Origin: a virus
Taxonomy: Duplodnaviria; Heunggongvirae; Uroviricota; Caudoviricetes
Strand: one strand, 5' to 3'
IMG/VR virus record: IMGVR_UViG_2660238580_000002
DNA: 64,000 nucleotides
Numbering within the stretch: the stretch's first letter is position 1; each line of letters starts with the position of its first letter. The notes below the pieces were generated by a model. The model did no database searches and was not told the DNA's origin. It saw only the letters and a program-made list of their open reading frames with translations. Shown here piece by piece: positions 20,158 through 62,980 of this stretch. The translations under genes and the position numbers were made by a program.

Positions 20158-20946
20158 TTACGCCAGTTGTACGGACACGAACGCATCAGGGTCAGCCAGC
20201 AGCATCAGCGGTGCTGACTGAATCATGGTGAACTCACGCGCCGGATCGCCGGTGGTCACCCAGTTTTTCGGGTAACGGGCAGAGGCGTTAATGCCTTCGC
20301 GCTGTGCGTCCGCATCCTGAATGCAGCCATAGGTGCGCAGACCGCGTGCCTGAGTGTTCCCCAGCACCATCGTGTTGTCCGGCAGGAAGTTCTTTTTGAC
20401 GCCGTTTTCCACGTACTGTCCGGAATACACGACGATGGCCACATCGCCATACATCCCCTTATAGGACACCGCTTTGCCCAGGTCTTTCACCGCTGTCTCC
20501 AGCTCGGAATTAGAGCCACGACGGGTATCCAGCTTCTCCTTGACGGCTTTGAAGGAACGGAACAGCGCCCAGCCTTTCGGATCGAACACGATGATATTCA
20601 CCACACCGCTGGCGTTCAGCGCGTAGGCTTCGATATCGTCGGTCGGGTCATACGTGGACTTGTCACGCTTGCTCCACTCCGTGCCGCCGGACTGCGTGAT
20701 GTTATTCTCCTCACTGCGGCCCATATCCACCTCAACCGGATCGAAGGCTTCACCGGTCATGGTGTATTTGCCCTTAAGCACGGCAGAAACTGCCTGCATC
20801 TCTTCGACCTGAGCAATGGCCAGCTCTTCGTCACGCATGTTCTGCATGATGATGCGACGGCGGCGGTAAGCCGGGTCCGCCAGATTCTGCGGATCTTCAT
20901 CCGGCAGGCGACGCAGGGTCATCTGCGGATTCACTTCATGCTTCGG
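20158..20946 (-). pseudogene. E: major capsid protein E, 3' fragment (codons ~82-341) cut off from its 5' part by island insertion
   Basis: Reads PKHEVNPQMTLRRLPDEDPQ...PDAFVSVQLA with no start codon; in-frame stop immediately upstream of PKH. Confidence 0.92.
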
Positions 20947-20948
20947 CT
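20939..20948. repeat. 10-bp direct repeat TGCTTCGGCT (island junction, putative att core)
   Basis: Identical 10-mer at 33376-33385; lies in E codons Lys-Pro-Lys-His. Confidence 0.8.
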
Positions 20949-21082
20949 ACATGAGTCAAATATGAAAGGATGTGAATGATTTGATTACGTTTTAGCTATA
21001 GAATTGAAATGGAAAATCCTTGAATGCAATACAACGTGCAATACATGGATGAAAACCATCACTCATTTAACAAGAGGAATCT

Positions 21083-21988
21083 ATGCGCTCACCCAACAGA
21101 ATGCATGAACGCTCAACATTTTATAAGTATATGTCGTTGAATACCGCGAAGATTGTTCTTGATTCATGCAGCCTTAGATGGAGTTCTCCGGTCCTATTTA
21201 ATGACCCTTTTGATGTTCCAAGAGAAGTTATGCCTGGTATTAACGAAATTAATATTGGCAAAGCTTTAGCCCGCAAGTTAATAGCGGAGTTGATTACCCC
21301 CAGAGAAGACATACAAAATTTAAACCCTAGAATTAGAACAATGCTAAGTGATTTCCAAAAGTCATTTCCTTTAGGCATACCCGCAGGATTAATTGAAAGA
21401 TTTCAAGAAATGGTAAACATTCCACCAGTTGGGATTGGCGCTCCTGCGGCAATACAAGAAATGAAAGATGTCTGGCGAGGAATGCTTAATAACAGAAGGA
21501 TTTTGTGTTTATCTGAGAGCCCTATAATCACTCCTATGTGGAATCACTATGCCGATAAATATAAAGGTATAGTTATCGAATTTGATTGTGTAGACTTTCT
21601 GGATAGCGCTTGGTTAATAGCCAAACCTATGAAATACACAGATAAAATGCCTCTAACTCACACTGCTGAAGGGATGGCCGAGTTGCTTTTCATGCCAGAC
21701 AATAAGTCAATTGAATATATCAATAATGAGATAATATTCATAAAAACAGAAGAATGGGCATATGAAAGAGAGTGGAGAATTTCAACCTACGCTAGGCCAA
21801 ATAGCACTGGTCAATATAGCGACTTAAAATTTCACCCTTTTGAGTTAAAATCTGTAATACTTGGTCCTCTTTTTGATGCCAGCGAGTTCGATGAAGTCGC
21901 ATCACTAGTTAAGATGTATCCAAGAGCGAAATTATTTAAAAGTTCATTTGGGAACGACAGAAAAATATCCATAGTACCACTACCTTAA
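21083..21988 (+). CDS. DUF2971-family protein
   Basis: 301 aa; N-terminal FYKYMSLNTAKIVLDSCSLRWSSPVLFNDPFD signature; GAGGA RBS upstream. Confidence 0.65.
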   Translation: MRSPNRMHERSTFYKYMSLNTAKIVLDSCSLRWSSPVLFNDPFDVPREVMPGINEINIGKALARKLIAELITPREDIQNLNPRIRTMLSDFQKSFPLGIPAGLIERFQEMVNIPPVGIGAPAAIQEMKDVWRGMLNNRRILCLSESPIITPMWNHYADKYKGIVIEFDCVDFLDSAWLIAKPMKYTDKMPLTHTAEGMAELLFMPDNKSIEYINNEIIFIKTEEWAYEREWRISTYARPNSTGQYSDLKFHPFELKSVILGPLFDASEFDEVASLVKMYPRAKLFKSSFGNDRKISIVPLP

Positions 21989-22094
21989 AAGGTCAAATGC
22001 TTTTGACAAATAAAATCTATCGCCAGTTTTACTGGCGACTTTTAAGCAACAAAGAACCACCTAAGCACTCTTCCTACCTATGGTTTCATTTGTT

Positions 22095-22646
22095 TTAACT
22101 TCGCTGATTATCCTTGATATACCTTTCAGCCATATCTGGAATGTTATCTGAGATCTGGTAAGCTCGAATAAATGCTTTACTGACCTCCATCTTAATGAAG
22201 TCCTGATACCGTTTTTCCATGCCAGGAAACTGTCGACAGATCGCAAGTGGAAGACTATCAATGATTGCTCCAACTTCCCCAGTTAATTTCGACAAGGCAT
22301 AAGTCGCAAATGCAGTGTCAATTACCTCACCTGTTTCGCTGGCATTCTTCAGTTCCTGTGCGTCGGCCTGCGCACGCGTAAGTCGATGGCGTTCGTACTC
22401 AATAGTCCCTGGCTGGAGATCTGCCTCGCTGGCCTGGCGCAGTTCTTCAACCTCCCGGCGCAGCTTTTCGTTCTCAATTTCAGCATCCCTTTCGGCATAC
22501 CATTTTATGACGGCGGCAGAGTCATAAAGCACCTCATTACCCTTGTCACCGCCTCGCAGAACGGGCATTCCCTGCTCCTGCTAGTTCTGAATGGTACGGA
22601 TACTCGCACCGAAAATGTCAGCCAGCTGCTTTTTGTTGGCTTCCAT
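22095..22646 (-). pseudogene. terminase small subunit Nu1-like gene with in-frame amber codon at codon 22
   Basis: MEANKKQLADIFGASIRTIQN-TAG-QEQGMPVL...; first ~100 aa near-identical to prophage Nu1, C-terminal ~80 aa divergent; TAG at 22581-22583 where helper has TGG. Confidence 0.8.
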
Positions 22647-22699
22647 TGTTCATTCCACGGACAAAACCAGAGAAAGGAAACGACAGAGGCCAAAAAGCC

Positions 22700-22860
22700 T
22701 GTTTTTAGCACCTGTCGTTTCCTTTCTTTTTAGGGGATGTTTTTAATAAAAACATTAAGTTACGGCGAAGAAGAACGGAAACGCCTTAAACAGGAAAATT
22801 TTCACAAATAGCGAAAACCCGCGCGCCTGACGCCCCGTAGCCTGTCAGATCGCCGGAAAG
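22700..22860 (-). other. island cos-like region (cosB-like, variant cosN 22824-22835, partial cosQ-side)
   Basis: Aligns base-by-base with prophage cos (39600-39790); 5 of 12 cosN positions differ (GGGCGTCAGGCG vs GGGCGGCGACCT). Confidence 0.7.
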
Positions 22861-22891
22861 GACCCGCCAGCCAGAGCGGGCCCTAATTTCA

Positions 22892-23275
22892 TCAACCAAT
22901 CAGCTTATAGCGACCATCCCGTGCATTGCGGCGTACACGCTCAATCTTGAGGCATAGCGCCGCATCTGGCTTTTTTGGGACAGGTACGCGGCAATATTCA
23001 GAAGCGCGAGGAATATTATTTATCCAGTCGATCACTTCACTTAAATACCAGGCCTTACGCCCTTCCGTAACCTGCACACGCTCCGGGAACTCTCCACTAG
23101 CCTCAAGGTTTAGCAGTGTACGCCGACTCAGGGTTGTAATTTCCATCACCTGATTCATATCAACAAGGCGCTCGCTTAAACACATTTTGTCAGCGATAGC
23201 TTTTAATTCCTCTACAGCTGGATTCGGGTACATCATTTCGGCAATTGGCTTAAGGTCATTGTAATCATTCTGCAT
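22892..23275 (-). CDS. AlpA/excisionase-family HTH protein
   Basis: 127-aa ORF; C-terminal half ITTLSRRTLLNLEASGEFPERVQVTEGRKAWYLSEVIDWI resembles AlpA-type HTH; true start may be internal. Confidence 0.5.
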   Translation of the reverse strand: MQNDYNDLKPIAEMMYPNPAVEELKAIADKMCLSERLVDMNQVMEITTLSRRTLLNLEASGEFPERVQVTEGRKAWYLSEVIDWINNIPRASEYCRVPVPKKPDAALCLKIERVRRNARDGRYKLIG

Positions 23276-23286
23276 TGTATCCCCCT

Positions 23287-23628
23287 TTACACACGAGCCA
23301 GCGGCTGAACAGAAATACCTGAGCCAACAAACGCTGCAATCTTTACTGACAGTTCTTTTACAGACTCAGGCCAGTTCAGAGCATCAACATTTAAGACACC
23401 TGTCTTATAGACCTGAGCCCGTGTTTTTTTCGCGGTGTCGATTTGTACAGCGGAAACATAAACCGCTTTACCTACGCTCGAACCATCCCATACCACCAGT
23501 GCACCTGTTGCATCTTCCTGCATCAGTGGCGTAAATGCAGGAATTACCCCTTTATTAGCTGAAAATATCCCCAGCGTAGTCACCAGTGCTTCAGTGCCAG
23601 CCATGAGTTCAGTGTAATGAGTAGCCAT
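23287..23628 (-). CDS. head decoration protein D homolog (island-encoded)
   Basis: 113 aa; shares PA-TPLM...VAWDG/VVWDG...YK-G...WPE...AF-G with lambda gpD. Confidence 0.6.
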   Translation of the reverse strand: MATHYTELMAGTEALVTTLGIFSANKGVIPAFTPLMQEDATGALVVWDGSSVGKAVYVSAVQIDTAKKTRAQVYKTGVLNVDALNWPESVKELSVKIAAFVGSGISVQPLARV

Positions 23629-23637
23629 TGCTCCCCC

Positions 23638-24678
23638 TTAGCCAATGCGAACGGTAACAAAACGATTGATGCGGGCCGGTATTGGCTGTGGTGCTGAATG
23701 TGTCTGCACATATTCAATAGCCGGATCACCAGGTACAATATAGTTTTTCGGTGCAAGTTCGGCTTTAGTCAGCCCCATTCGGATTAGCTCCGGATCCTGA
23801 ATACCGCCATAGGCGACAATCCCCTGAAGAGCCGTATTGCCAAGCACCATCAAATCAGGATCAAGGAAATGTTTTTCTGTTCCGTCCTCGTCGGTATAAC
23901 GCCCGCTGTAAACAACAATCGCAACATCGCCCATATACCCTTTAAAACTCACCGAATCACCAAGGTCTTTAAGGGCCGTTTCCAGTTCGGAATTAGAACC
24001 ACGACGGGTATCCAAAGCCTCTTTTATCGCTCTGAATGAACGGTATTTCTTCCATACATTACCACCCATAATGATGATATTAGTGACGCCCTCACTAAAT
24101 TCTGCGTAGCTCTCAATATCATCATTTGGATCAAAAGTTTCTTTATCCTTACTTGACCACTCAGTACCGCCAGACTGAGTGATGATATTTTGTGGTTTTA
24201 TATTCCAGTCCAGCTCATAACGTTCAATACCATCGCCCTCAATGATATTTTTCCCCGTTGTGATTGCCTGAACAGCAAGCCATTCAATACGTGCACGAAT
24301 AGCTTTAGCTTGATTTACAATCGCCTGTTTAACTTTAATATTACGCGCCCCAAAAGCATTGTATTGCTCAGGTGATACACCAGCAGGGCGCACAGCTAAC
24401 TTATTTGGATCAATGCTGCTTTTCGGCTTCATATAGCCTGGACGAATTGTTTTTGATTCGTACCCTTCGTCACGTGAAACTTTACTACCCACCATAGGAG
24501 AACAAAACGCTGCAATTGGGATATTTGGATCGTCGATTGTATCAAGAATAATATCGCGCGATTCAAACATTACCGAGCGAGTAAAAAACAAACTGGTAAA
24601 CAACGCATTTAGTTGTTTTTGTACATCTACAGCATTAACCACCTGTACAAGCTGGGTAGGCGAATATAAATCAACCAT
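23638..24678 (-). CDS. major capsid protein E homolog (island-encoded, diverged)
   Basis: 347 aa from MVDLYSPTQL (AAAGAGGA RBS); C-terminus ITQSGGTEWS...DTRRGSNSELETA...GDVAIVVYSG aligns with lambda gpE. Confidence 0.8.
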   Translation of the reverse strand: MVDLYSPTQLVQVVNAVDVQKQLNALFTSLFFTRSVMFESRDIILDTIDDPNIPIAAFCSPMVGSKVSRDEGYESKTIRPGYMKPKSSIDPNKLAVRPAGVSPEQYNAFGARNIKVKQAIVNQAKAIRARIEWLAVQAITTGKNIIEGDGIERYELDWNIKPQNIITQSGGTEWSSKDKETFDPNDDIESYAEFSEGVTNIIIMGGNVWKKYRSFRAIKEALDTRRGSNSELETALKDLGDSVSFKGYMGDVAIVVYSGRYTDEDGTEKHFLDPDLMVLGNTALQGIVAYGGIQDPELIRMGLTKAELAPKNYIVPGDPAIEYVQTHSAPQPIPARINRFVTVRIG

Positions 24679-24963
24679 ACACATCCTCTTTGCATTCATT
24701 AAAAATAATTGTGGATATATGCTATCACCAATATTTGTCATGCGAATACATGCAACCGAGTGCAATGTTGTATAAAGTTTTGGGATGACAACTTCAGCGC
24801 GGATAATTAGTGTTAATATATTCACTCCCTTTGGTCGGGATTTATGTAGCATGCCGGAAAATTTATTTTTTCCGGCCTTTTTTATTGGCAATATTTAAAA
24901 CGGAATATCATCTCCCCATTGCTCATTATCTCCCACTGGTGGATGGCTTCCTTGCTGATCTGC

Positions 24964-25344
24964 CTATTGTTTTGCTCTGTTCAGTGCGTCAGTAGCCTGA
25001 CCCTGTTGACCTTTTTTGCCGCCCGGTCGCACCGTTCGCGCACTGATTACGCTGTCTGCGATAACCTGCCAGCCCTGCCGCGTTTCACCGTTCTGTCCAG
25101 TCCACTGGCTCACCTGCATGTTACCCGCCACGCTCAGGAGTTCGCCTTTGTGATGCTTTGCCAGCGCATCGGCTTGTCTGCCAAACGCCAGCACAGATAA
25201 CCACATCGTCGCCGTTCCGTCATCTGCCTGGCTGCATGGCAAAGATACCGCCATCCGTGCCAGTGTCATGGGTGTTCCCTTGCTGGTATGTTTTACCTGT
25301 GGGTCGTCCACCAGCCGCCCGTAAGCTGCTATTTGCGCCGTCAT
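24964..25344 (-). CDS. single-stranded DNA-binding protein (OB-fold, SSB-like)
   Basis: 126 aa with SSB-like pattern GRLVDDPQV...WLSVLAFGRQAD...KGELLSVAGNMQVSQW. Confidence 0.6.
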   Translation of the reverse strand: MTAQIAAYGRLVDDPQVKHTSKGTPMTLARMAVSLPCSQADDGTATMWLSVLAFGRQADALAKHHKGELLSVAGNMQVSQWTGQNGETRQGWQVIADSVISARTVRPGGKKGQQGQATDALNRAKQ

Positions 25345-25355
25345 GCTGCCTGCTC

Positions 25356-25598
25356 TCAGGACTTAATATTGATGGTTGTCACTTCCTCCGCTTCGGCAAT
25401 CTCCCGTTCGGTCAGCGTGGCAAAGTTTGCAGCCGCCGTTGTCATGAATGCGCTTATCAGTTCGGGATGTGCTTTCGCGTATCCTTCCCCGGCGTTGCGG
25501 TCTATTGCCTTAATCGCCACCCTTAGCCAGTGTTCAGCCATATCAAGGGCGCGGTAATGTGGCTTTATATGTTTGTTCAGTTTTCCTGATGTGTGCAT
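25356..25598 (-). CDS. hypothetical protein
   Basis: 80-aa ORF immediately downstream of iteron region. Confidence 0.4.
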   Translation of the reverse strand: MHTSGKLNKHIKPHYRALDMAEHWLRVAIKAIDRNAGEGYAKAHPELISAFMTTAAANFATLTEREIAEAEEVTTINIKS

Positions 25599-25643
25599 TT
25601 TTATTTTTACCCCCTCGTTTAAAAAGTTTTTTGTGCACCACCA

Positions 25644-25876
25644 CCTTGTCTACCTTGTCTACCTGATTAGTTATCAGGCCAGTAATGGCGCGGGTTTCAG
25701 AGAGGTAGACAGCCCCAAATAGCTGTCTACCTCATCTCTACCCGTCTCCTTACCTGTCTACAAAAATGGGTAGATAAGGTAGATAACAGGTAGACAGTGA
25801 AAAATAGTTATCTACCTGCATTAATACATTGAAATAAAAGTATTTTATTTCAGTCAGGTAGACAAGGTAGATAACC
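25644..25876. repeat. iteron cluster (GGTAGACA/GGTAGATA and complement TGTCTACC), putative island replication origin
   Basis: More than 10 copies of an 8-11 bp motif in both orientations, AT-rich, directly upstream of primase gene. Confidence 0.75.
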
Positions 25877-25887
25877 ATTGCCATTTT

Positions 25888-27639
25888 TTATAAAAACGCA
25901 TCGCAATCATCAGTAGTCGTTGCGTTGGTCTGAGTGACTCCCTTAACTTTTCGCGTAATATATTCATATCCGTAAACTTTCGCCGCTGACCTCATAGCCT
26001 TTCCGAACTCATTCACGCTCAAACATTTCCCCTTTCCTGTATATGCCATGAAGGCCATATAGACACGGTAAAGGCTGTTTCTGGTCGTGTACTTCACGGT
26101 GTCACCACCACCGCCCATCATTAGCCCACGAGCTTCCTCCAGAAACTCCAGCGCCGCGCAAAGCTCAACAACCGGATCCGTTTGCTGCTTTATTGCCAGA
26201 GCTTCATCACCGTCACGCTGTTCCAGTAATAAAGCCCGTGCCTTTTCAGGGTCAGCAAAATTAGCCAGCAAGCGGCGGATAATTACGGGGATTTCTGCCG
26301 CTATCTTTTCCGGTAATTCCTTGTCTTTTTCGTCCTCCCTTACAATGTTGTCGAACCGGAAAATCACCCGACGGCGTGACACACCTCCGGCCCGTTCGGT
26401 AAAGATCATCGGGTCGTTATTGGTTGCCAGTACCACCGCCCTTATTATCGTCGTGAATCGCTTCTCATATTTCGGGTTAATTTCAACGGGATCGCCTCCC
26501 GTGATTTTCTTGATGCCCGTGCCTTCCCCCGTATATTTCGGCTGATCGGCAAGGACGATAAGACGACTCCCGACAACCTGCGCGCGCCCTCCTGCATCAT
26601 CGAGTGATGTCATCTCTGCGCTTACGGTGTTCTGTTTGCCAGCAAGCAGGGTGGCAATATGAGTAAATGTGCTCTTTCCGCTTCCCCCGTCTCCGGTGGC
26701 CTCAATGAACATCTGCCAGTCGTAGCGGTTCGCCATAATCATGTATAACGCGGCACATATACGCATCATCTTGCGCGGGTCTTTTCCTGCAGCATGTTCA
26801 AGCCATTTATGGAAATTTGGCGCATTATCGCGGATGTTTTCCCCTGCTACTGGTGGCGTGTACTCAATACCATTGTGCGTGGTGCTCCAGTGCTCCGGCG
26901 AGTGCGGAGAAAATTCCCCCGTTTTCAGATTAAGCACACCATTAGTGAACGGTAGCAAATCACCGGACGGCTCCCCCATGGGGGCGGCAATAACTTTTAA
27001 CGCTTCCACGGCGTTATTGATTACGCGCTTGCTGAACGTGGCCCTGTGCTCTGAATAGATCGCCACCATTTCGCGGCTCAGCTCCATTGTGCTGACCGGA
27101 CACCATACCCCGCCGCGCCATACGTGGACGATTTCACTTTCTGCATGAACACAAACACCATCAAAGCGATCGGCAAGTAGTTGTGCCCGCTCACTGTCTG
27201 CCATCTGTGAAAGTTGCGCCTTTTGCTTCGTCGGAAGATTAAGCACCAGGCTTTCCCCACGCTCGCATTCCTCTTTGAGTCGCGGCAACTGGTCGGATAA
27301 ATCCACTGGGCTGGTGTCAGTAATCCCCGCGTATTCGTGTACGGTCTTCACTCCAGCCACAGCCAGTAACGTAACAATCTGCGTCATGCTGTGCTCTGTG
27401 ATATGTCCTGCGCGGTAAACACGCACACACTGACGATCTTCATCAATGATCCGGTAATCGGTGATGTTTTTCAGTTGCTCATCAGCCAACACGACAGGCG
27501 GCACATCGTCGGCGGCAATATGTTTACCCGCCCATTCCTGCCACTCTTTCGCATGGCTCCACGCATCACTACCTGCAAAGATGATTACCTCTGTCAGTCT
27601 GTCGCGTGGCTGTTTTTTTAAGTTCGGTGCCAGTTTCAT
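25888..27639 (-). CDS. P4-family primase/helicase (Pri-Rep-like replication protein)
   Basis: 583 aa; Walker A GDGGSGKST in C-terminal NTPase domain; adjacent to iterons. Confidence 0.75.
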   Translation of the reverse strand: MKLAPNLKKQPRDRLTEVIIFAGSDAWSHAKEWQEWAGKHIAADDVPPVVLADEQLKNITDYRIIDEDRQCVRVYRAGHITEHSMTQIVTLLAVAGVKTVHEYAGITDTSPVDLSDQLPRLKEECERGESLVLNLPTKQKAQLSQMADSERAQLLADRFDGVCVHAESEIVHVWRGGVWCPVSTMELSREMVAIYSEHRATFSKRVINNAVEALKVIAAPMGEPSGDLLPFTNGVLNLKTGEFSPHSPEHWSTTHNGIEYTPPVAGENIRDNAPNFHKWLEHAAGKDPRKMMRICAALYMIMANRYDWQMFIEATGDGGSGKSTFTHIATLLAGKQNTVSAEMTSLDDAGGRAQVVGSRLIVLADQPKYTGEGTGIKKITGGDPVEINPKYEKRFTTIIRAVVLATNNDPMIFTERAGGVSRRRVIFRFDNIVREDEKDKELPEKIAAEIPVIIRRLLANFADPEKARALLLEQRDGDEALAIKQQTDPVVELCAALEFLEEARGLMMGGGGDTVKYTTRNSLYRVYMAFMAYTGKGKCLSVNEFGKAMRSAAKVYGYEYITRKVKGVTQTNATTTDDCDAFL

Positions 27640-27935
27640 TTTTTGCCCCTGAATGCGTTAATCATGCTTTTCATTTTCTGGATGTTTCCCCGCGCTTTTT
27701 CCCTGCTGATGGGCTTACTGCGGGGTGCGGCATATACCAGGGAAAAATCACGCCGGAACTGATAAACAGGCATCACGCAGTCATAGCTATACCCCTCACG
27801 ACGGTAAGTGATGCGCCGTTCTGCCACGCCTTTAATCGTTACCGTGCCGCCGTATTTATCGCGGTAAATATCGCCGTTCATAAATTCAGGCCGAGCGGGG
27901 CCGCTGGCAATAAAGCCAGAATTTTTCATTTCCAT
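27636..27935 (-). CDS. hypothetical protein
   Basis: 99-aa ORF, stop overlaps primase start. Confidence 0.4.
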   Translation of the reverse strand: MEMKNSGFIASGPARPEFMNGDIYRDKYGGTVTIKGVAERRITYRREGYSYDCVMPVYQFRRDFSLVYAAPRSKPISREKARGNIQKMKSMINAFRGKK

Positions 27936-27952
27936 ATTATTTATTCCTCGAC

Positions 27953-28174
27953 TTAACTCGACTTATTTGATAGCAGGGCACTATTTATTGCGTCATTGAG
28001 TTTTTCTGCTGCTTCATCAATAAGTGACAACAGGCCATAAGCAATATTTGCATCTTCATTGTCATTTATGCAATCAAGCCACATATTTAATATTGCTTTT
28101 GCTGAATTATTTAAAGTTAATGAACTTTCTGCACATGCTAACAATTTAAAAAAGACTTCCCGTTCTGTATTCAT
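27953..28174 (-). CDS. hypothetical protein
   Basis: 73-aa ORF in island early region. Confidence 0.35.
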   Translation of the reverse strand: MNTEREVFFKLLACAESSLTLNNSAKAILNMWLDCINDNEDANIAYGLLSLIDEAAEKLNDAINSALLSNKSS

Positions 28175-28366
28175 TTAATCCCCCACCAGCTTACTTTCTT
28201 CCTCAATCAAAAAACTAGCGACACTTCCCGAAAGACGCGCCAGTAGGCTCGCCAGTGCGGATATATCAGCATCTGTAATTTTGTTCGGGTATACCTCAAG
28301 AAGGCGGCAAATAATTTCTGTCTGGTGCGCACGTTCAGCGGCTTCGTGTAATGTGATTTCCTGCAT
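28175..28366 (-). CDS. hypothetical protein
   Basis: 63-aa ORF in island early region. Confidence 0.35.
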   Translation of the reverse strand: MQEITLHEAAERAHQTEIICRLLEVYPNKITDADISALASLLARLSGSVASFLIEEESKLVGD

Positions 28367-28600
28367 TAATGCACCTCTTTTAATTCATACACTGCTGAAA
28401 TAATGACTTGTGATAAGCCATATTCTGATGATTCGCTTCTCACCGCAGCAATAGCCGTCTGAACATTAACAGCCTTCACGTTCTGAGCGATACCAATTGT
28501 GTGGCCTAGTGGGTTAACCGCACGAGCAAATACACGGAAGGTTTTAAGCACGGCATACTGAACCGCCCCGGGTTTCCTGGAGAGTGTTTTATCTGTGAAC

Positions 28601-29491
28601 TCAGGCTGCCAGATCATCGTTTCCGATGGAAGCATAATAAGCTTTTTCTGCTTCTGCCGGAGGAGTATGGCCCAGCCTTTCCAGCAATCGTCGATTGTTA
28701 TACCAGTCCACCCACGTGAGTGTGGCCAGTTCCACTTCTGCACGGTTTTTCCAGCTCTTACGGTGTATTACCTCCGCTTTGTAAAGACCATTGATGCTCT
28801 CCGCCATCGCGTTGTCATACGAGTCGCCTGTACTTCCTGTTGATGCCAGTAATCCGGCTTCCTTAAGCCGCTGTGTGTAGGCCAGCGATACATACTGAGA
28901 ACCTTTATCACTGTGATGGACCGTGCCGGACGGTCGACGGGCCCATAACGCCTGCTCCAGTGCATCCAGCACGAATGTCGTTTCCATGGACGATGAGACC
29001 CGCCACCCCACGATGTATCCGGCAAACACATCAATGATGAACGCCACATAGACGAAGCCCCGCCATGTGCTGACGTAAGTAAAATCAGCCACCCACAGCT
29101 GGTCAGGTCGTTCTGCCACGAACTGACGGTTTACGCGGTCGCCTGCGGCAACGGCTTTCCGGCTGATGGTCGTACGGACCTTTTTACCCCGGAGAACACC
29201 GGCAAGTCCCATAACCGCCATGAGACGTGCCACAGTGCATCTGGCCACTCTGATACCTTCCCGTAACAACTGACGCCAGACTTTACGCACACCGTATACC
29301 TTGTGATTTTCATCGTATACGCGCTGTATCTCTTTCTTCAGCCAGTCATCGCGCTGCGCACGGGCACTGCGTTTATCCGGATGATGTCGCTGTTGCTGAC
29401 AGTGGTAATACGTTGACGGGGCAATATGCAGTTCGCTGCATAGCGGTCCGACCCCGTACTGCTCACGCAGCTTATCCAGCAGTGGCATCAT
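28601..29491 (-). CDS. IS629 transposase OrfB (DDE integrase core)
   Basis: 296 aa, identical to copy at 61767-62657. Confidence 0.9.
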
Positions 29492-29814
29492 TTTTTCCAG
29501 AGGCGGTCGAACTCCGCCTTCGCAAAATAAGCGGAAGCCTGGCGAAGGATATCGTTACTGCGGCGCAGTTCACGATTTTCACGTTCCAGCTCTTTCAGAC
29601 GCTGACGTTCAGCGGTGGTGAGCCCTCCATCACCGCCCCCGGTATCCCGCTCATGCTGGCGAACCCAGACACGCAGAGTCTCCGGCGTACAGCCAATCTT
29701 TGGAGCAATGGAACAAATTGTCGCCCATTGTGAGTCATATTCGCTCTGACTTTCCAGAACCATACGGACTGCCCGTTGACGGACTTCGGGGGAAAAACGA
29801 GTATTTTTAGTCAT
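29488..29814 (-). CDS. IS629 transposase OrfA (HTH)
   Basis: 108 aa [30 protein letters not shown]. Confidence 0.9.
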
Positions 29815-29868
29815 CCTGTTTACCTCTTTCTCAGGAAGTTTAGTCTCCAGGATTCCCGGGGCGGTTCA

Positions 29869-30060
29869 TACCTCCTGACGAATACGGGCGGCAAATATCA
29901 TCACGCAGCCAGTTGGGGATTGTTGGCGGGCTTCCTGTTCGCTGGCGGCCTCGATGTGTATTACGCGTGGTTGTGCGGTGCTCAGGGCGATAAAACGCCA
30001 GATGTATTTATTCAGGTTGTGCGGGTCCCGCCCTTGCGGGTGTGTGGTATGATTTCTCAT
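29869..30060 (-). CDS. Icd-like cell division inhibitor family protein, 3' end truncated by IS629
   Basis: YIWRFIALSTAQPRVIHIEAASEQEARQQS...IFAARI resembles Icd-like small proteins; reading past the IS predicts loss of only 3 codons. Confidence 0.45.
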
Positions 30061-30198
30061 AGCTATCTCGATACTGTTGCTATCGTTGGTGGTTAGAAGC
30101 CCGTTGGTGTTCCTAGCGCCTTCGGGCTTTGCTTTTTTAAGTGCCTCCGTGTTAAGGTGGTCACCTAACAGTAAAAAGGCTAATTCAATAGGTGGTCA

Positions 30199-30391
30199 CT
30201 TGTCAACAATCAAACGCGATAAAAGTCCTAAGGGTGATGGGCAATCTCCACAATTCAGAATGCGAATTTCTCCAGAGCTAAAAGAGCAATTCGACAAAGA
30301 AGCGCAGAGCGACGGCATAAGCCTAGCCAACTGGCTTAAAGAATTAGGGCGCAAAGAGCTGCTACGGCGCGGTATTGAACCAAAAGGATAA
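30199..30391 (+). CDS. ribbon-helix-helix (Arc/CopG-like) DNA-binding protein
   Basis: C-terminal ISPELKEQFDKEAQSDGISLANWLKELGRKELL RHH pattern; start uncertain (TTG at 30199 with AGGTGG SD, or ATG at 30260). Confidence 0.5.
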
Positions 30392-30418
30392 GAGTAATTG
30401 AAGTCAAGGAGCTAACAC

Positions 30419-30775
30419 ATGAAATACGAATTCTTCGCAACAAGTAGCAGTAGTTTGGATGTATACATAGTCACTGTATCAAACGATTCTAGCTCGCTAA
30501 TCATGACTTGCAATTGTCCAGCAGGAAGTAAAGGTATTCTATGTAGACACCGTAAAGCTTTAATTACCGGAAAAATCCGTGGTATATTCACTCCCCCAAG
30601 AAGGAATAATCCCGAAAAGTTACAAGAAGCTATAAATTTAATAACCACATATGGCATAGATAAAACATTAAAGTTGTACACTGATGAGTTAGAACGAGCA
30701 GAACAGACTTGGATAAGTGTTCGCGATAATTTGAGAGCAATGATAAACGCTCTTGTTGAACCACCTAAATATTGA
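30419..30775 (+). CDS. small SWIM-type zinc-finger protein
   Basis: 118 aa with CNCPAGSKGILCRH (CxC...CxH); AAGGAG RBS upstream. Confidence 0.5.
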   Translation: MKYEFFATSSSSLDVYIVTVSNDSSSLIMTCNCPAGSKGILCRHRKALITGKIRGIFTPPRRNNPEKLQEAINLITTYGIDKTLKLYTDELERAEQTWISVRDNLRAMINALVEPPKY

Positions 30776-30906
30776 ACTGTTCACATTGCCTATCAGTCGA
30801 CAACCTCGTATTCTGATTAAGGCTAACTATATACTCACATTGGCGACCAATTCTGGTCGCCTTTATCCACCATTTTTATAACATCATAGATTAAAAGTGT
30901 TAATCC

Positions 30907-31737
30907 TTACCCCCTGAATGGAATTGATGAGGATTTAATTTCCACTGAACTAAATCCTTTTGAATCCAAGAACATTTTTATACCAGCCTCAATGAAATCA
31001 TAATCGTTTGTCGGGCCAATAGTAATACTTTTAATTGGTAACTTCCTATGATCTTTATTACCAATGATGATATAAGGGATGACACCATTATTATTTATTC
31101 TGAATTGCACATCTGGTATTAGTATGCGCGGAGTAAATACCAATCTAAATTCATTTTCTTCGATAAAACTAGGATGTTTAAAAAATGGGATGTATTTAGA
31201 TATAAATTGATACGTAGAGGCCATTGTTACAAAATGATCATTCTTTTCTTTAATATTAATACCATTACAAGAAAAAAACGCCCCCAACTCCTTACTCATC
31301 TTAGTAACATCGTTATTATTTGAATATATAACATCATGTGCAACACAATTTAAATAAATATTTTGAGAAAAGCTCACAAGTTCATCCGCATCAAACTCAA
31401 TGCAAACACCCTGTTTATTTCCGTAACCTCTCCACTGACTTAACTTATCGTTTTCCTTACAAAAAGAGATGCTATAAACATGTTTATCAATCCCTTTTTC
31501 TTTTTGTAACCTCCCTTTCTCATACATGTCAAGAGACTTGAGCAAAATAGTTTTCTTATCTTTTGGAATGATATTGTCATCAACTATTTTAATTGTATTT
31601 CGAAAGCATTCACATCCATGGTTAGACTCCTCTTTATCATTTAAGAAATATATGTTTGTAGCCCATAAAGAATTAGAGTCTAATATACCTTTCAAACCAA
31701 AAAGATCTGTATAATGAAATATAGCCACAATGCCCAC
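30907..31737 (-). CDS. DUF2971-like protein
   Basis: 276 aa; N-terminal IFHYTDLFGLKGILDSNSLWATNIYFLNDKEE resembles DUF2971 signature. Confidence 0.5.
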   Translation of the reverse strand: MGIVAIFHYTDLFGLKGILDSNSLWATNIYFLNDKEESNHGCECFRNTIKIVDDNIIPKDKKTILLKSLDMYEKGRLQKEKGIDKHVYSISFCKENDKLSQWRGYGNKQGVCIEFDADELVSFSQNIYLNCVAHDVIYSNNNDVTKMSKELGAFFSCNGINIKEKNDHFVTMASTYQFISKYIPFFKHPSFIEENEFRLVFTPRILIPDVQFRINNNGVIPYIIIGNKDHRKLPIKSITIGPTNDYDFIEAGIKMFLDSKGFSSVEIKSSSIPFRG

Positions 31738-31744
31738 CTAATAG

Positions 31745-31975
31745 TTAAGTTGTTTCCCACTCACCTCGAATCCATGCCTGCACTTCTGAAAGACGATATG
31801 CAACAGCAGTGGAACCAATCTTGATCCGCTTAGGAAATTTTCCTTCCTTCTCCAGCTTCCAGCGTGTGCTGTTCGCAAGAGTGGTTAGCTCCCGACATTC
31901 TTTCTCACGGATCATTCGGTCAATGTTAGGAATGTACTCCAGACCCTTTTTATCAACAATTGCCATTTTTTTCAT
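31745..31975 (-). CDS. alpA: AlpA-family transcriptional regulator
   Basis: 76 aa; TTLANSTRWKLEKEGKFPKRIKIGSTAVAYRLSEVQAWI AlpA-type HTH; immediately downstream of int. Confidence 0.75.
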   Translation of the reverse strand: MKKMAIVDKKGLEYIPNIDRMIREKECRELTTLANSTRWKLEKEGKFPKRIKIGSTAVAYRLSEVQAWIRGEWETT

Positions 31976-31976
31976 G

Positions 31977-33212
31977 TTAACCAGCCTTTTGTTTGAGGAT
32001 TGTCACTTTTGAATCAGCACCTGCGATGCTATTGAGATATGTAGTCCAGAGTTCCAGAGCATCCAGTTTTTTAGCCATAAACTTACTCCGGTTGTAAACA
32101 CCTGCCACGCCAGGTAGCGCATGGCCTAACAGTTGTTCTACTACATAAAATTCAACACCGAGATCACTTAGATGAGTAGATAGCGTTCTTCTAAGGTCGT
32201 GTAGTGACCATTGTTTTTCATGGCCCAAACGTTTACCGATTTTCCCCCCAATCTTGCTTACGCTTTCTCTAATTCGCAGACTTCCCAGCACATAACCAGT
32301 ATGTTTTGTCTCTTCGTGAACATCCGTTACCCACTGTCGTAGAATTTCAGGTACTGGTCTGACGATTTCAACACCGGTTTTTGAGTGTTCTTTTGGTACA
32401 GTCCAAACCCAACTTTCTAGATCCCATTCGCTCCATTCTGATAATCGGGCTTCACTCATTCGACATCCAAATACTGTACAAAGCACAAACATTTTTCGCG
32501 TGTATTCAGACATTAGTTTTAAATCAGGCTCGACAAAAATTGCCTTCCAGAGCTGGCCCAGTTCGGCTTCATCCAGAACCCGATCCCGCTTACCTGCAAT
32601 CTGCCCCACATCACTCATGCGCAAATCCTTTAAAGCATCACACGTCGCGTACTGGCGTACCCGACAAAAACGAAGAGCTAATTTAGTGTCAGAAAAAACA
32701 TACGCCGCCATAACTGGTGCATTACGTTTAATTCGGTCAAAACAGTCCAGCCATTCATATAGGTGAGTGTCATTTACGGGCAAATGACCGATATAGGGAA
32801 AGATATGCTTTCGAAATCTGCCAAGCGTTACAGCATGAGTTTTACGACGCACCTTACAGTAATTTTCATACCAGTAATTTAGTGCATCCTCCACTGTGAC
32901 CGGCTTTAAGCGTTCTTCAGCCTGAATCTTAATCTGGATACGCGGATCACGTTTGTCAGCCAACCAACCACGGCACTCGTCGCGCTTTTCTCTTGCCTGT
33001 TTGAGTGACATATCAGGATATTTACCCAACGTTAGCCAGACCGGAGCAGCCCGGCCACCTGCTAACCTGTAGAAGAAAACAAAGCTCACAGCCCCCTTAG
33101 TACTCACACGAATAGAAAGCCCCTTTCCATCAGCAATGGTGATCTGCTTTTCTCTGGGTTTCCCCAGATATCCTTTAAGCGCTTTGTCGCTCAGTTTGTT
33201 CTCGCCAGCCAT
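31977..33212 (-). CDS. int: P4-type tyrosine integrase
   Basis: Start MAGENKL; DUF4102-like arm domain; catalytic residues R (CRMSEARL), HDLRRT, Y (VAGVYNRS); adjacent to junction repeat. Confidence 0.9.
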   Translation of the reverse strand: MAGENKLSDKALKGYLGKPREKQITIADGKGLSIRVSTKGAVSFVFFYRLAGGRAAPVWLTLGKYPDMSLKQAREKRDECRGWLADKRDPRIQIKIQAEERLKPVTVEDALNYWYENYCKVRRKTHAVTLGRFRKHIFPYIGHLPVNDTHLYEWLDCFDRIKRNAPVMAAYVFSDTKLALRFCRVRQYATCDALKDLRMSDVGQIAGKRDRVLDEAELGQLWKAIFVEPDLKLMSEYTRKMFVLCTVFGCRMSEARLSEWSEWDLESWVWTVPKEHSKTGVEIVRPVPEILRQWVTDVHEETKHTGYVLGSLRIRESVSKIGGKIGKRLGHEKQWSLHDLRRTLSTHLSDLGVEFYVVEQLLGHALPGVAGVYNRSKFMAKKLDALELWTTYLNSIAGADSKVTILKQKAG

Positions 33213-33344
33213 TTTTAGCCCCAAAAAGCAATACAAGCTGCAATACAGAGATGATTGCAACACACAGATAACGAGGAAAATCCAGTGAAAGCGCCAGATA
33301 ATCTTATTCTTTATTATCAAAGAATTAAGTGTAAAAACCAGCAA

Positions 33345-33620
33345 CTACACGAAAGCCTCAGAAAGCCATGCTAAGTGCTTCGGCTTGACATATCCCGGCG
33401 TAAATTCAGAGGTGGAGCCGCCACGGGAACGGATAACCTCACCGGAAACAATCGGCGAAACGTACAGCGCCATGTTTACCAGTCCCGGAATTTGTGAGAG
33501 ATAGACTTTCTCCGTGGTGAAGGGATAGCTCTCACGGAAAAAGAGACACAGAAACAGCGGATCAAACTTAAATTTCTGCTCATTTGCCGCCAGCAGTTGG
33601 GCGGTTGTGTACATCGACAT
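33345..33620 (-). pseudogene. E: major capsid protein E, 5' fragment (codons 1-~83) fused to 9 island-derived codons
   Basis: MSMYTTAQLLAANEQKFKFDPLFL...EFTPGYVKPKH then LAWLSEAFV-stop from island sequence. Confidence 0.92.
33376..33385. repeat. 10-bp direct repeat TGCTTCGGCT (island junction, putative att core)
   Basis: Identical to 20939-20948; overlaps E codons Lys-Pro-Lys-His of the 5' fragment. Confidence 0.8.
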
Positions 33621-33675
33621 AAAAAAATCCCGTAAAAAAAGCCGCACAGGCGGCCTTTAGTGATGAAGGGTAAAG

Positions 33676-39045: not shown

Positions 39046-39565
39046 TCAGCAACCCCGGTATCAGTTCATCCAGCGCGGCTGCTTTGTTCATGGCTTTGAT
39101 GATATCCCGTTTCAGGAAATCAACATGTCGGTTTTCCAGTTCCGGAAAACGCCGCTGCACCGACAGGGGGATCCCGTCGAGAATACTGGCAATTTCACCT
39201 GCGATCCGCGACAGCACGAAAGTACAGAATGCGGTTTCCACCACTTCAGCGGAGTCTCTGGCATTTTTCAGCTCCTGTGCGTCGGCCTGCGCACGCGTAA
39301 GTCGATGGCGTTCGTACTCAATAGTCCCTGGCTGGAGATCTGTCTCGCTGGCCTGCCGCAGTTCTTCAACTTCCCGGCGCAGCTTTTCGTTCTCAATTTC
39401 AGCATCCCTTTCGGCATACCATCTTATAACGGCGGCAGAGTCATAAAGCACCTCATTACCCTTGCCACCGCCTCGCAGAACGGGCATTCCCTGTTCCTGC
39501 CAGTTCTGAATGGTACGGATACTCGCACCGAAAATGTCAGCCAGCTGCTTTTTGTTGACTTCCAT
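39020..39565 (-). CDS. Nu1: terminase small subunit Nu1
   Basis: 181 aa MEVNKKQLADIFGASIRTIQNWQEQGMPVLRGGGKGNEV; 546 nt equals lambda Nu1. Confidence 0.93.
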   Translation of the reverse strand: MEVNKKQLADIFGASIRTIQNWQEQGMPVLRGGGKGNEVLYDSAAVIRWYAERDAEIENEKLRREVEELRQASETDLQPGTIEYERHRLTRAQADAQELKNARDSAEVVETAFCTFVLSRIAGEIASILDGIPLSVQRRFPELENRHVDFLKRDIIKAMNKAAALDELIPGLLSEYIEQSG

Positions 39566-39599
39566 TGTTCATTCCACGGCCAAAAACAGAGAAAGGAAA

Positions 39600-39790
39600 C
39601 GACAGAGGCCCAAAAGCTCGTTTTCAGCACCTGTCGTTTCCTTTCTTTTCAGGGGGTATTTTAAATAAAAACATTAAGTTACGACGAAGAAGAACGGAAA
39701 TGCCTTAAACCGGAAAATTTTCATAAATAGCGAAAACCCGCGAGGTCGCCGCCCCGTAACCTGTCGGATCACCGGAAAGGACCCGTAAAG
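39600..39790 (-). other. prophage cos site (cosB, cosN at 39743-39754, cosQ)
   Basis: Contains AGGTCGCCGCCC (reverse complement of lambda cohesive end GGGCGGCGACCT) followed by CGTAACCTGTCGGATCACCGGAAAGGACCCGT. Confidence 0.85.
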
Positions 39791-61766: not shown

Positions 61767-62657
61767 TCAGGCTGCCAGATCATCGTTTCCGATGGAAGCA
61801 TAATAAGCTTTTTCTGCTTCTGCCGGAGGAGTATGGCCCAGCCTTTCCAGCAATCGTCGATTGTTATACCAGTCCACCCACGTGAGTGTGGCCAGTTCCA
61901 CTTCTGCACGGTTTTTCCAGCTCTTACGGTGTATTACCTCCGCTTTGTAAAGACCATTGATGCTCTCCGCCATCGCGTTGTCATACGAGTCGCCTGTACT
62001 TCCTGTTGATGCCAGTAATCCGGCTTCCTTAAGCCGCTGTGTGTAGGCCAGCGATACATACTGAGAACCTTTATCACTGTGATGGACCGTGCCGGACGGT
62101 CGACGGGCCCATAACGCCTGCTCCAGTGCATCCAGCACGAATGTCGTTTCCATGGACGATGAGACCCGCCACCCCACGATGTATCCGGCAAACACATCAA
62201 TGATGAACGCCACATAGACGAAGCCCCGCCATGTGCTGACGTAAGTAAAATCAGCCACCCACAGCTGGTCAGGTCGTTCTGCCACGAACTGACGGTTTAC
62301 GCGGTCGCCTGCGGCAACGGCTTTCCGGCTGATGGTCGTACGGACCTTTTTACCCCGGAGAACACCGGCAAGTCCCATAACCGCCATGAGACGTGCCACA
62401 GTGCATCTGGCCACTCTGATACCTTCCCGTAACAACTGACGCCAGACTTTACGCACACCGTATACCTTGTGATTTTCATCGTATACGCGCTGTATCTCTT
62501 TCTTCAGCCAGTCATCGCGCTGCGCACGGGCACTGCGTTTATCCGGATGATGTCGCTGTTGCTGACAGTGGTAATACGTTGACGGGGCAATATGCAGTTC
62601 GCTGCATAGCGGTCCGACCCCGTACTGCTCACGCAGCTTATCCAGCAGTGGCATCAT
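61767..62657 (-). CDS. IS629 transposase OrfB
   Basis: 296 aa identical to copy 1. Confidence 0.9.
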
Positions 62658-62980
62658 TTTTTCCAGAGGCGGTCGAACTCCGCCTTCGCAAAATAAGCGG
62701 AAGCCTGGCGAAGGATATCGTTACTGCGGCGCAGTTCACGATTTTCACGTTCCAGCTCTTTCAGACGCTGACGTTCAGCGGTGGTGAGCCCTCCATCACC
62801 GCCCCCGGTATCCCGCTCATGCTGGCGAACCCAGACACGCAGAGTCTCCGGCGTACAGCCAATCTTTGGAGCAATGGAACAAATTGTCGCCCATTGTGAG
62901 TCATATTCGCTCTGACTTTCCAGAACCATACGGACTGCCCGTTGACGGACTTCGGGGGAAAAACGAGTATTTTTAGTCAT
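62654..62980 (-). CDS. IS629 transposase OrfA
   Basis: 108 aa identical to copy 1. Confidence 0.9.

Follow-up and report, generated by a model that had tools for sequence, protein, structure and literature searches.

Gram-negative phage-inducible chromosomal islands (PICIs) have usually been described with one AlpA master regulator, which is coded beside the integrase gene int, and no function or regulation is assigned to the capsid and decoration homologs of PICIs. The present analysis concerns gene X, an AlpA-type gene in a stretch of 64,000 nucleotides (the window) from the IMG/VR virus record IMGVR_UViG_2660238580_000002 (Duplodnaviria; Heunggongvirae; Uroviricota; Caudoviricetes). X closes the late operon of a helper-embedded PICI, directly behind the genes for a capsid homolog (capE) and a decoration homolog (HDPD). 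A widespread lineage of islands carries this second, architecturally distinct AlpA paralog joined to the capsid genes and a conserved candidate operator. Sequence comparison suggests that X may be the late cassette's own regulator, acting at its promoter via the repeats of this operator; the reading is held tentatively, at slightly less than an even chance.

The AlpA protein of EcCICFT073 activates its own promoter (PMC6092414). This canonical AlpA has the Pfam family and the winged helix-turn-helix (HTH) fold in common with X and is likewise satellite-encoded. The int-alpA spacer of EcCICFT073 (locus L004, 24183-24250) contains seven direct repeats ACAAC(G/A) with exact 10-bp spacing, a candidate array for the binding of AlpA or of the integrase (arm sites); since this spacer also has an array, phased direct repeats appear as a recurring companion of AlpA-type PICI proteins. 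X is 24-35% identical to the canonical AlpAs and has 127 instead of 62-76 amino acids, with N- and C-terminal helices added. It is coded in the capsid operon at the far end of the island and not beside int, and the repeats in question are TTRYAY rather than ACAAC. The habit of the AlpA family, a small single domain coded beside the integrase, is not found in X. Helper-embedded PICIs were described by Tommasini, Mageeney and Williams in 2023 (PMC10111431); the portions of that paper drawn on here place Phage_AlpA proteins in the integration zone and discuss no late-zone copy. A second AlpA copy was reported once, as unusual: alpA_1 of the E. coli PICI EcCIMP1, located at the end opposite int (PMC11773190). 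This gene is coded on the opposite strand, its PICI has a P22-like helper but no capsid or terminase genes, and it is dispensable for excision and transfer (PMC11773190). Unlike alpA_1, X is co-oriented, located inside the capE-HDPD operon, and widespread.

Other described proteins resemble X in fold or in genomic setting. Rpp, the redirector of packaging in Gram-negative PICIs, is a TerS-derived protein of 144-153 aa with an N-terminal winged HTH that binds the helper TerS (PMC6739421). RppA, RppB and RppC (PDB 6HLK/6HN7; PMC6739421) are, like X, small satellite winged-HTH proteins coded beside cos, of a MerR/excisionase/TerS-like superfamily; their N-terminal winged HTH is followed by a C-terminal dimerization/TerS-binding region and their genes are located downstream of cosN, whereas the winged HTH of X is central and its gene is upstream of cosQ. 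The direct repeats bound by Apl (PMC7498355), BldC (PMC5859096) and RdfS (PMC11963761) are spaced by one helical turn; such proteins are often also transcription regulators, and several of them unite this role with that of an excisionase. On direct repeats of DNA, BldC forms cooperative multimers (PMC5859096). Apl of phage 186, lambda Xis, Streptomyces BldC and RdfS of ICEMlSymR7A have a winged HTH like X and assemble as head-to-tail oligomers on phased repeats and regulate promoters, and the repeat architecture that they bind matches the candidate array upstream of capE. They consist of a single domain of 55-90 aa, whereas X has extra helices; the recombination directionality factors in this group (Apl, Xis, RdfS) go with integrase and attachment (att) sites, X with an operon of structural genes. 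The late operon psu-delta-sid of P4 includes, besides genes for capsid-related proteins, that of a transcriptional regulator of its own, Delta, a zinc-finger activator of the Ogr family that binds an inverted repeat at about -55; its likeness to X is a functional analogy without homology. The AlpA antiterminator of P. aeruginosa was rejected as a model for X, as it is a Q-like protein that has the name alone in common with X and is not retrieved by sequence or fold searches with X. It is described as 21Q-like, with eight helices, a C-terminal HTH, DNA contacts at residues 128-142 and an N-terminal ring entering the RNA exit channel (PMC9371919).

Gene X and its predicted protein

The 127-aa open reading frame (ORF) at 22892-23275 that was claimed in an earlier note on this DNA is present with exactly these limits on the - strand and starts with ATG. 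Its Shine-Dalgarno sequence, AAGGGGGA, overlaps the TAA stop codon of the upstream decoration gene, which indicates that the two genes are co-transcribed and closely linked in translation. Residues 36-85 match the Pfam family Phage_AlpA (PF05930) with E = 7.6e-9 and 35.8 bits (cut-off 21). In a sequence search of the Protein Data Bank (PDB) the sole significant match was 8C3T, an AlpA-family protein (E = 2e-9 with the single sequence); the family profile of X matches the same entry with E = 3.7e-13. X also matches PHROG 2790, annotated as 'excisionase and transcriptional regulator', at E = 1e-49. Searches of NCBIfam and PADLOC gave no match for X. The Nu1 profile (Phage_Nu1, PF07471) does not match X either; the Nu1 homolog is the neighboring gene at 22095-22646.

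An AlphaFold2 model of X was obtained from an alignment including canonical AlpAs, with an overall predicted local distance difference test score (pLDDT) of 77; the 26 close homologs alone gave an unusable model (pLDDT 51). Block means of pLDDT are above 90 for residues 41-80 and 85 for residues 81-90. The predicted fold is a winged HTH (two or three helices with a beta-hairpin as the wing), made up of helices 40-47 and 51-60, strands 67-70 and 73-77, and helix 78-86. In the model, N-terminal helices 8-15 and 19-30 come before it; on its other side are a linker rich in proline and a basic C-terminal helix (residues 105-119). Structure prediction had been proposed as a check, and AlphaFold2 with Foldseek returned a winged HTH closest to the GIsul2 excisionase: the best Foldseek match of the model in the PDB is 8C3T, with a root-mean-square deviation of 0.9 Å over 51 residues and 43% identity. 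Further matches are BldC, RdfS, DNA-binding domains of the MerR type and of lambda-type TerS, and Pukovnik Xis; the excisionases matched are 8C3T, 8DGL and 4J2N. At rank 40 is 6HN7 chain B, a lambda TerS fragment co-crystallized with RppC. The assignment to an AlpA/excisionase-like DNA-binding family, made earlier from the letters alone, is thus borne out by PF05930 above cut-off, by 8C3T as best match, and by the excisionase structures. The HTH itself also stands, but its placement in the C-terminal half was slightly off: since two N-terminal helices and one C-terminal helix flank it, it occupies the middle of the protein (residues ~37-86).

Homologs of X are spread across the Enterobacteriaceae: at least 98, of near-constant length, were found in Escherichia, Citrobacter, Enterobacter, Klebsiella, Salmonella, Pluralibacter, Trabulsiella, Buttiauxella, and Scandinavium, and others in Kosakonia, Kluyvera, Superficieibacter, and Cedecea. 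A scan of genome contigs for X yielded four loci. Of 5426 complete E. coli genomes, 377 have the capE-HDPD-X block, which occurs in at least nine further enterobacterial genera as well. The ratio of nonsynonymous to synonymous substitution rates (dN/dS) of X within E. coli is 0.07-0.08; between genera, dN in the HTH region is 0.04-0.08 while synonymous sites are saturated. Judged from its homologs and these rates, X is clearly to be regarded as a functional gene under strong purifying selection and not as a chance ORF. In a library of 1.84 billion representatives at 50% identity, the full-length architecture of X forms about three clusters, and the remaining matches cover the HTH only. In the phage collection X was matched over the HTH alone, at ~31-40% identity. 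With so few full-length clusters and HTH-only phage matches, the X subfamily is narrow and apparently satellite-specific. A full-text literature search for the RefSeq accession of X found nothing. X is an uncharacterized member of a known family, distinct in architecture and genomic niche.

The late cassette and its candidate operator

The island is inserted in capsid gene E of a lambda-like helper prophage. Gene E is split at about codon 84 into a 5' part (33345-33647) and a 3' part (20158-20934), and the 10-bp att core AGCCGAAGCA is present at both junctions inside it. The island has the characters of a helper-embedded PICI, namely the site in E, the 10-bp att block, co-orientation with gene E, the order int-alpA-primase-late zone, and a capsid homolog of its own. 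The order on the - strand is int, alpA, accessory genes with an IS3-family insertion, primase, iterons, an 80-aa ORF, a remnant of a single-stranded DNA-binding protein (SSB) gene, capE, HDPD, X, cos, terS with an amber codon, and a DUF2971 gene on the opposite strand. As the earlier note had stated, X lies between the capsid-homolog genes on one side and the island cos, which is complete, on the other, and it is separate from the canonical alpA, which overlaps the end of int ~8.5 kb away.

Across relatives, the constant neighbors of X are the capsid-E and decoration-D homologs only, 10-12 nt apart. The conserved cassette consists of a promoter, capE, HDPD, X, and cosQ/cosN, and X is the sole DNA-binding protein that is constant in it. 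The cassette occurs also on other backbones. The integrase is a different one in a Kluyvera island (L013), in locus L096 and in a Superficieibacter island (L014); near int, L013 and L096 have an HTH_17 regulator instead of a Phage_AlpA protein, and the replicase of L014 is an AAA_25 helicase. The available sequence of L013 and L014 yielded no second AlpA-type ORF, and none was called in L096; in L014, X is the sole AlpA-type ORF detected within 9 kb upstream. The helpers of the islands vary, some being lambda-like and others having P2-like tails (P2-like tail genes accompany the Buttiauxella and Scandinavium islands).

A cross-genus alignment of the DNA upstream of capE revealed three to four direct repeats TT(A/G)(C/T)A(C/T) (TTRYAY) with an exact 10-bp spacing. 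They are followed after 21-22 nt by an extended -10 element (TGnTAnnAT), which is ~40-50 nt before the capE start; the flanks vary. In the window the repeats are TTATAC (24770-24775), TTGCAC (24760-24765), TTGCAT (24750-24755), and a degenerate TCGCAT (24740-24745). The extended -10 of the proposed late promoter, PcapE, is TGATAGCAT, 22 nt downstream of the third repeat and ~40 nt upstream of the capE ATG, with the degenerate fourth repeat within the spacer. No -35 hexamer was found at the proper distance from this -10; the repeats would therefore be centered near -41, -51, -61 (and -71). Activator-dependent promoters typically have such a geometry.

Inspection by eye shows the array in each of the 89 X-bearing loci with the capE upstream region available (29 distinct sequences), and also in three further loci, two of which have an X that is 52% identical (L096 and L097) and one an X of the Scandinavium type (L098). 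A stricter pattern search found it in 88 of the 92 X-bearing loci. None of 80 EcCICFT073-type capE islands without X has the TTRYAY array, and EcCICFT073 itself has a conventional -35/-10 promoter in its place. The triple array occurs once in the window against 0.06 expected, and the two-repeat pattern has one other match there, inside an IS66-family element. The arrays of Buttiauxella and Scandinavium contain TTATAC only, with no TTGC, and accompany 'DME' variants of the recognition helix of X. On its upstream side the late cassette is delimited by a GC-rich hairpin, which is located between the promoter and the SSB gene; in seven aligned relatives a hairpin of different sequence is found at this position.

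The evidence for late-gene control by X, one of two roles suggested earlier, is circumstantial: a phased array is located at the capE promoter and inherited with X, and the fold of X is one that binds such arrays. X may bind the candidate array, and the effect may be activation or repression. In the proposed mechanism, monomers of X would bind the three to four direct repeats upstream of PcapE head-to-tail and cooperatively, and bound X would set the level or the timing of capE and HDPD transcription. Transcription of X itself (autoregulation) and read-through toward cos/terS would be under its control as well. The helices added at both termini would serve for oligomerization or for contacts with RNA polymerase. 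If X controls PcapE, it gives direct access to the question of when satellites express capsid-like proteins of their own, and why, and the late cassette would be an exchangeable, self-regulated unit.

Other island proteins were considered as binders of the array. The TTGCAC repeats were rejected as replication iterons, and the replication initiator is an unlikely binder because the real iterons (GGTAGAYA, right after the primase gene) differ and because the array is kept in the Superficieibacter island with the AAA_25 helicase as replicase. The canonical AlpA is unlikely, as the cassette occurs in islands with unrelated integrases in which no canonical AlpA was detected. TerS and Rpp are unlikely as well, as the array stays the same across loci in which these proteins differ or are missing.

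The role of X weighed against alternatives

Several points weigh against X as the regulator of PcapE. The array of L096 mixes both repeat types, and the co-variation of recognition helix and repeats is not clean. The co-occurrence of array and X compares essentially one diverse X-bearing lineage with one X-lacking lineage, so that independent contrasts are few. The -10 and the start site of PcapE were assigned by conservation only, and a consensus promoter scan did not call PcapE because the -35 is lacking. An activator encoded in its own operon needs a first round of expression from elsewhere. In addition, TTGC-N6-TTGC is the consensus of lambda CII, and a helper factor such as CII could bind the array. 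This fit to the CII recognition repeat would agree with a role of X in trans on helper promoters or host genes, comparable to P4 Delta or to CapR of PLE, with another factor binding the repeats; regulators directed at the late genes of the helper are common in satellites (PMC10111431, in its discussion of CapR). The last TTGC, however, is at about -43, whereas CII sites flank the -35, and the repeats are ~14 bp further upstream of the conserved -10 than CII sites are. Six positions are conserved and not the four of TTGC alone, and the TTATAC arrays of Buttiauxella and Scandinavium are devoid of TTGC. The array is conserved although the helpers differ (lambda-like versus P2-like tails). Outside the island the window has no triple array and a single two-repeat match, that in the IS66-family element, and the helper late and lysis regions have no TTRYAY match. 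An action of X on the helper or host is therefore considered unlikely. An excisionase-type protein expressed late, which acts at attP or attL-attR (for example, at the doubled TGTATTGC motif) or on int and times excision from the helper capsid gene, would account for the nearest solved structure being an excisionase and for the annotation of PHROG 2790 as excisionase/regulator, and Apl and Cox-type proteins unite both roles (PMC7498355). The doubled motif is present in the island at 21025-21047 (-) and ~33235-33265 (-), at the expected distances from the att core, and has TTGCA in common with the capE repeats; its 12-bp period and its core are nevertheless unlike those of the 10-bp TTRYAY array. 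The portions of PMC10111431 drawn on here describe a doubled TGTATTGCa motif in the attP arms of helper-embedded PICIs and report it for that integrase clade only, while X occurs also in islands with unrelated integrases (L013, L014, L096). A canonical alpA overlapping int is already present, X is at least 2 kb from either att site, and the second AlpA copy of EcCIMP1, positionally unrelated to X, is dispensable for excision (PMC11773190). An excisionase role is judged improbable. A dual-purpose X that oligomerizes on phased repeats containing TTGCA both at PcapE and at the doubled TGTATTGC, coupling late expression to the timing of excision and possibly, given its position at the DNA end, to cos use, is considered very doubtful; if true, X would be the binder of the arm motif of helper-embedded PICIs and a cis-acting timing device between satellite and helper.

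The other role suggested earlier was packaging redirection. As a packaging accessory similar to Rpp or gpFI, X would bind the satellite DNA end (hairpin/cosQ) or TerS and steer the helper terminase to the satellite cos. The stop codon of X is 29 nt from cosQ in E. coli islands and 40-56 nt from it in Buttiauxella, Kosakonia, Superficieibacter, and Kluyvera, which favors this role; outside E. coli, however, the intervening DNA is not conserved, while the HTH of X is nearly invariant. The winged HTH is common to X and the DNA-binding domains of lambda-type TerS (7LWR, 7LXS, 7LW0), the fold match to the TerS fragment of the RppC co-crystal at rank 40 is weak, and the predicted C-terminal helix could serve in contacts with other proteins. 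No sequence similarity connects X with RppA, RppC or Nu1; BLASTP gave no alignment with RppA, and phmmer and profile searches of the PDB do not retrieve 6HLK. Identity of X with Rpp was ruled out by these searches together with gene position and domain order: Rpp and TerS genes are downstream of cosN and their products recognize cosB. The cos region was compared in 80 close relatives from IMG/VR and 12 more distant loci. Downstream of X two arrangements were found, one with an island-specific cosB (GGTGGTGGTTTTGTTGTT...) and its own TerS bearing a different winged HTH, the other with a lambda-type cosB with or without lambda-type terS. X proteins 100% identical to that of the window occur with each of them, including loci without detected downstream terS, and with four cohesive-end 12-mers. 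In Pluralibacter gergoviae islands (L008-L010) X is followed by a 131-aa Rpp-related gene, which stands between X and cosQ/cosN (~415 nt downstream of X), and then, past cos, by a gene for a 139-aa RppA homolog (70% identity). Since identical X is found across cosB/terS types and coexists with Rpp-like genes, it neither replaces nor co-varies with the determinants of packaging specificity. In EcCICFT073, which is without X, cosQ is identical, the RppA gene is downstream of cos in the terS position, and the slot after the decoration gene codes for an unrelated 137-aa protein. The cos region has no TTRYAY array. A packaging role for X is unsupported and is given a small chance, comparable to that of the excisionase role. 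The earlier interpretation was thus half right: late-gene control is plausible, whereas packaging redirection is unsupported, with no Rpp/TerS similarity, the gene located upstream of cosQ, and no co-variation with cosB/terS. The tempting idea of X as a new type of packaging redirector was removed for this reason.

Features of the island and its surroundings

The coordinates of the features are collected in Table 1. The complete cos of the island consists of cosQ (GGGTCCT, 22859-22865), the 12-nt cohesive end and cosB. From the right edge of the cohesive end through cosB and codons 1-100 of terS, 454 of 479 positions (95%) are identical to the helper cos/Nu1 (22345-22835 versus 39264-39754); island and helper differ in the 12-nt cohesive end and in the DNA upstream of cosQ. 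Among close relatives, four cohesive-end variants and two cosB types occur in mosaic combinations, which suggests frequent recombination between helper and satellite at cos. The C-terminal half of the island terS has 59% DNA identity to the helper Nu1. The amber codon of terS is a TGG-to-TAG change inside the HTH; it is found in three of eight full-length relatives of that terS type and is absent in five. In the Pluralibacter islands the two Rpp-related genes flank cos, and the 131-aa protein coded upstream of cosQ resembles the C-terminal part of RppA.

Table 1. Location of gene X, the island and associated features in the window
Feature	Coordinates	Strand	Remarks
Whole helper-embedded PICI	20939..33385	-	10-bp att cores AGCCGAAGCA at 20939-20948 and 33376-33385
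int	31977-33212	-	satellite integrase
Canonical satellite alpA	31745..31975	-	76 aa, overlaps end of int
D5-type primase	25888-27639	-	followed by GGTAGAYA iterons
GC-rich hairpin	24853..24876		between SSB gene and promoter; upstream edge of late cassette
Direct-repeat array, 10-bp period	24740..24775	-	candidate operator for X
Extended -10 TGATAGCAT	24719..24727	-	proposed late promoter PcapE, by conservation
Major-capsid homolog (lambda gpE, Pfam Phage_cap_E), capE	23638..24678	-	346 aa from RefSeq ATG
Decoration-protein homolog (lambda gpD, Pfam HDPD)	23287..23628	-	satellite copy
Shine-Dalgarno of X, AAGGGGGA	23280..23287	-	read from sequence
Gene X	22892..23275	-	127-aa AlpA-family protein, predicted winged HTH; closes satellite late operon
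Hairpin GGGCCCGC..GCGGGTCC	22860..22883	-	directly past X stop; 3' arm overlaps cosQ (22859-22865)
Satellite cosN cohesive-end 12-mer GGGCGTCAGGCG	22824..22835	-	helper counterpart GGGCGGCGACCT at 39743-39754
cosB, lambda/helper type (R3-I1-R2-R1 region)	22647..22823	-	resembles helper
Satellite terS, Nu1-like	22095..22646	-	183 codons; amber at codon 22 (22581-22583)

The head genes of the helper (D, C, B, W, A, and Nu1) and its cos are located at 33.3-39.8 kb, and the genes from FI to the tail genes are left of 20.2 kb. The region 25640-25880, directly downstream of the primase gene, is densely set with iterons (GGTAGAYA / TGTCTACC), has in addition two repeats of 30 nt that contain palindromes, and is presumably the origin of replication of the island. 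The annotation of the identical RefSeq locus gives the island SSB gene (24895-25344, -) as a pseudogene that has an internal stop; a 126-aa ORF is left here. The 137-aa protein in the corresponding slot of EcCICFT073, c1501 (L004, 32083-32496), has no similarity to X and was rejected as its homolog. It belongs to PHROG 1999, matches the C-terminal part of a head maturation protease weakly (phrog_53, E = 1e-8), and may be a Nu3/scaffold-like protein. DUF2971 genes are present at both island ends, at 21083-21988 (+) and 30907-31737 (-), and match the PADLOC candidate defense family PDC-S31 (E = 2e-32 and 1e-5); an ORF with a SWIM zinc finger (30419-30775, +) has a weak match to PADLOC PDC-S62. 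These genes are probably accessory anti-phage cargo. The IS66-family element is located at ~54.4-56.8 kb. An IS3-family element (28601-29814) with a frameshift ALIL pseudoknot (29417-29533) interrupts the early region of the island, and a second, apparently identical copy is found at 61767-62980, near the right end of the window.

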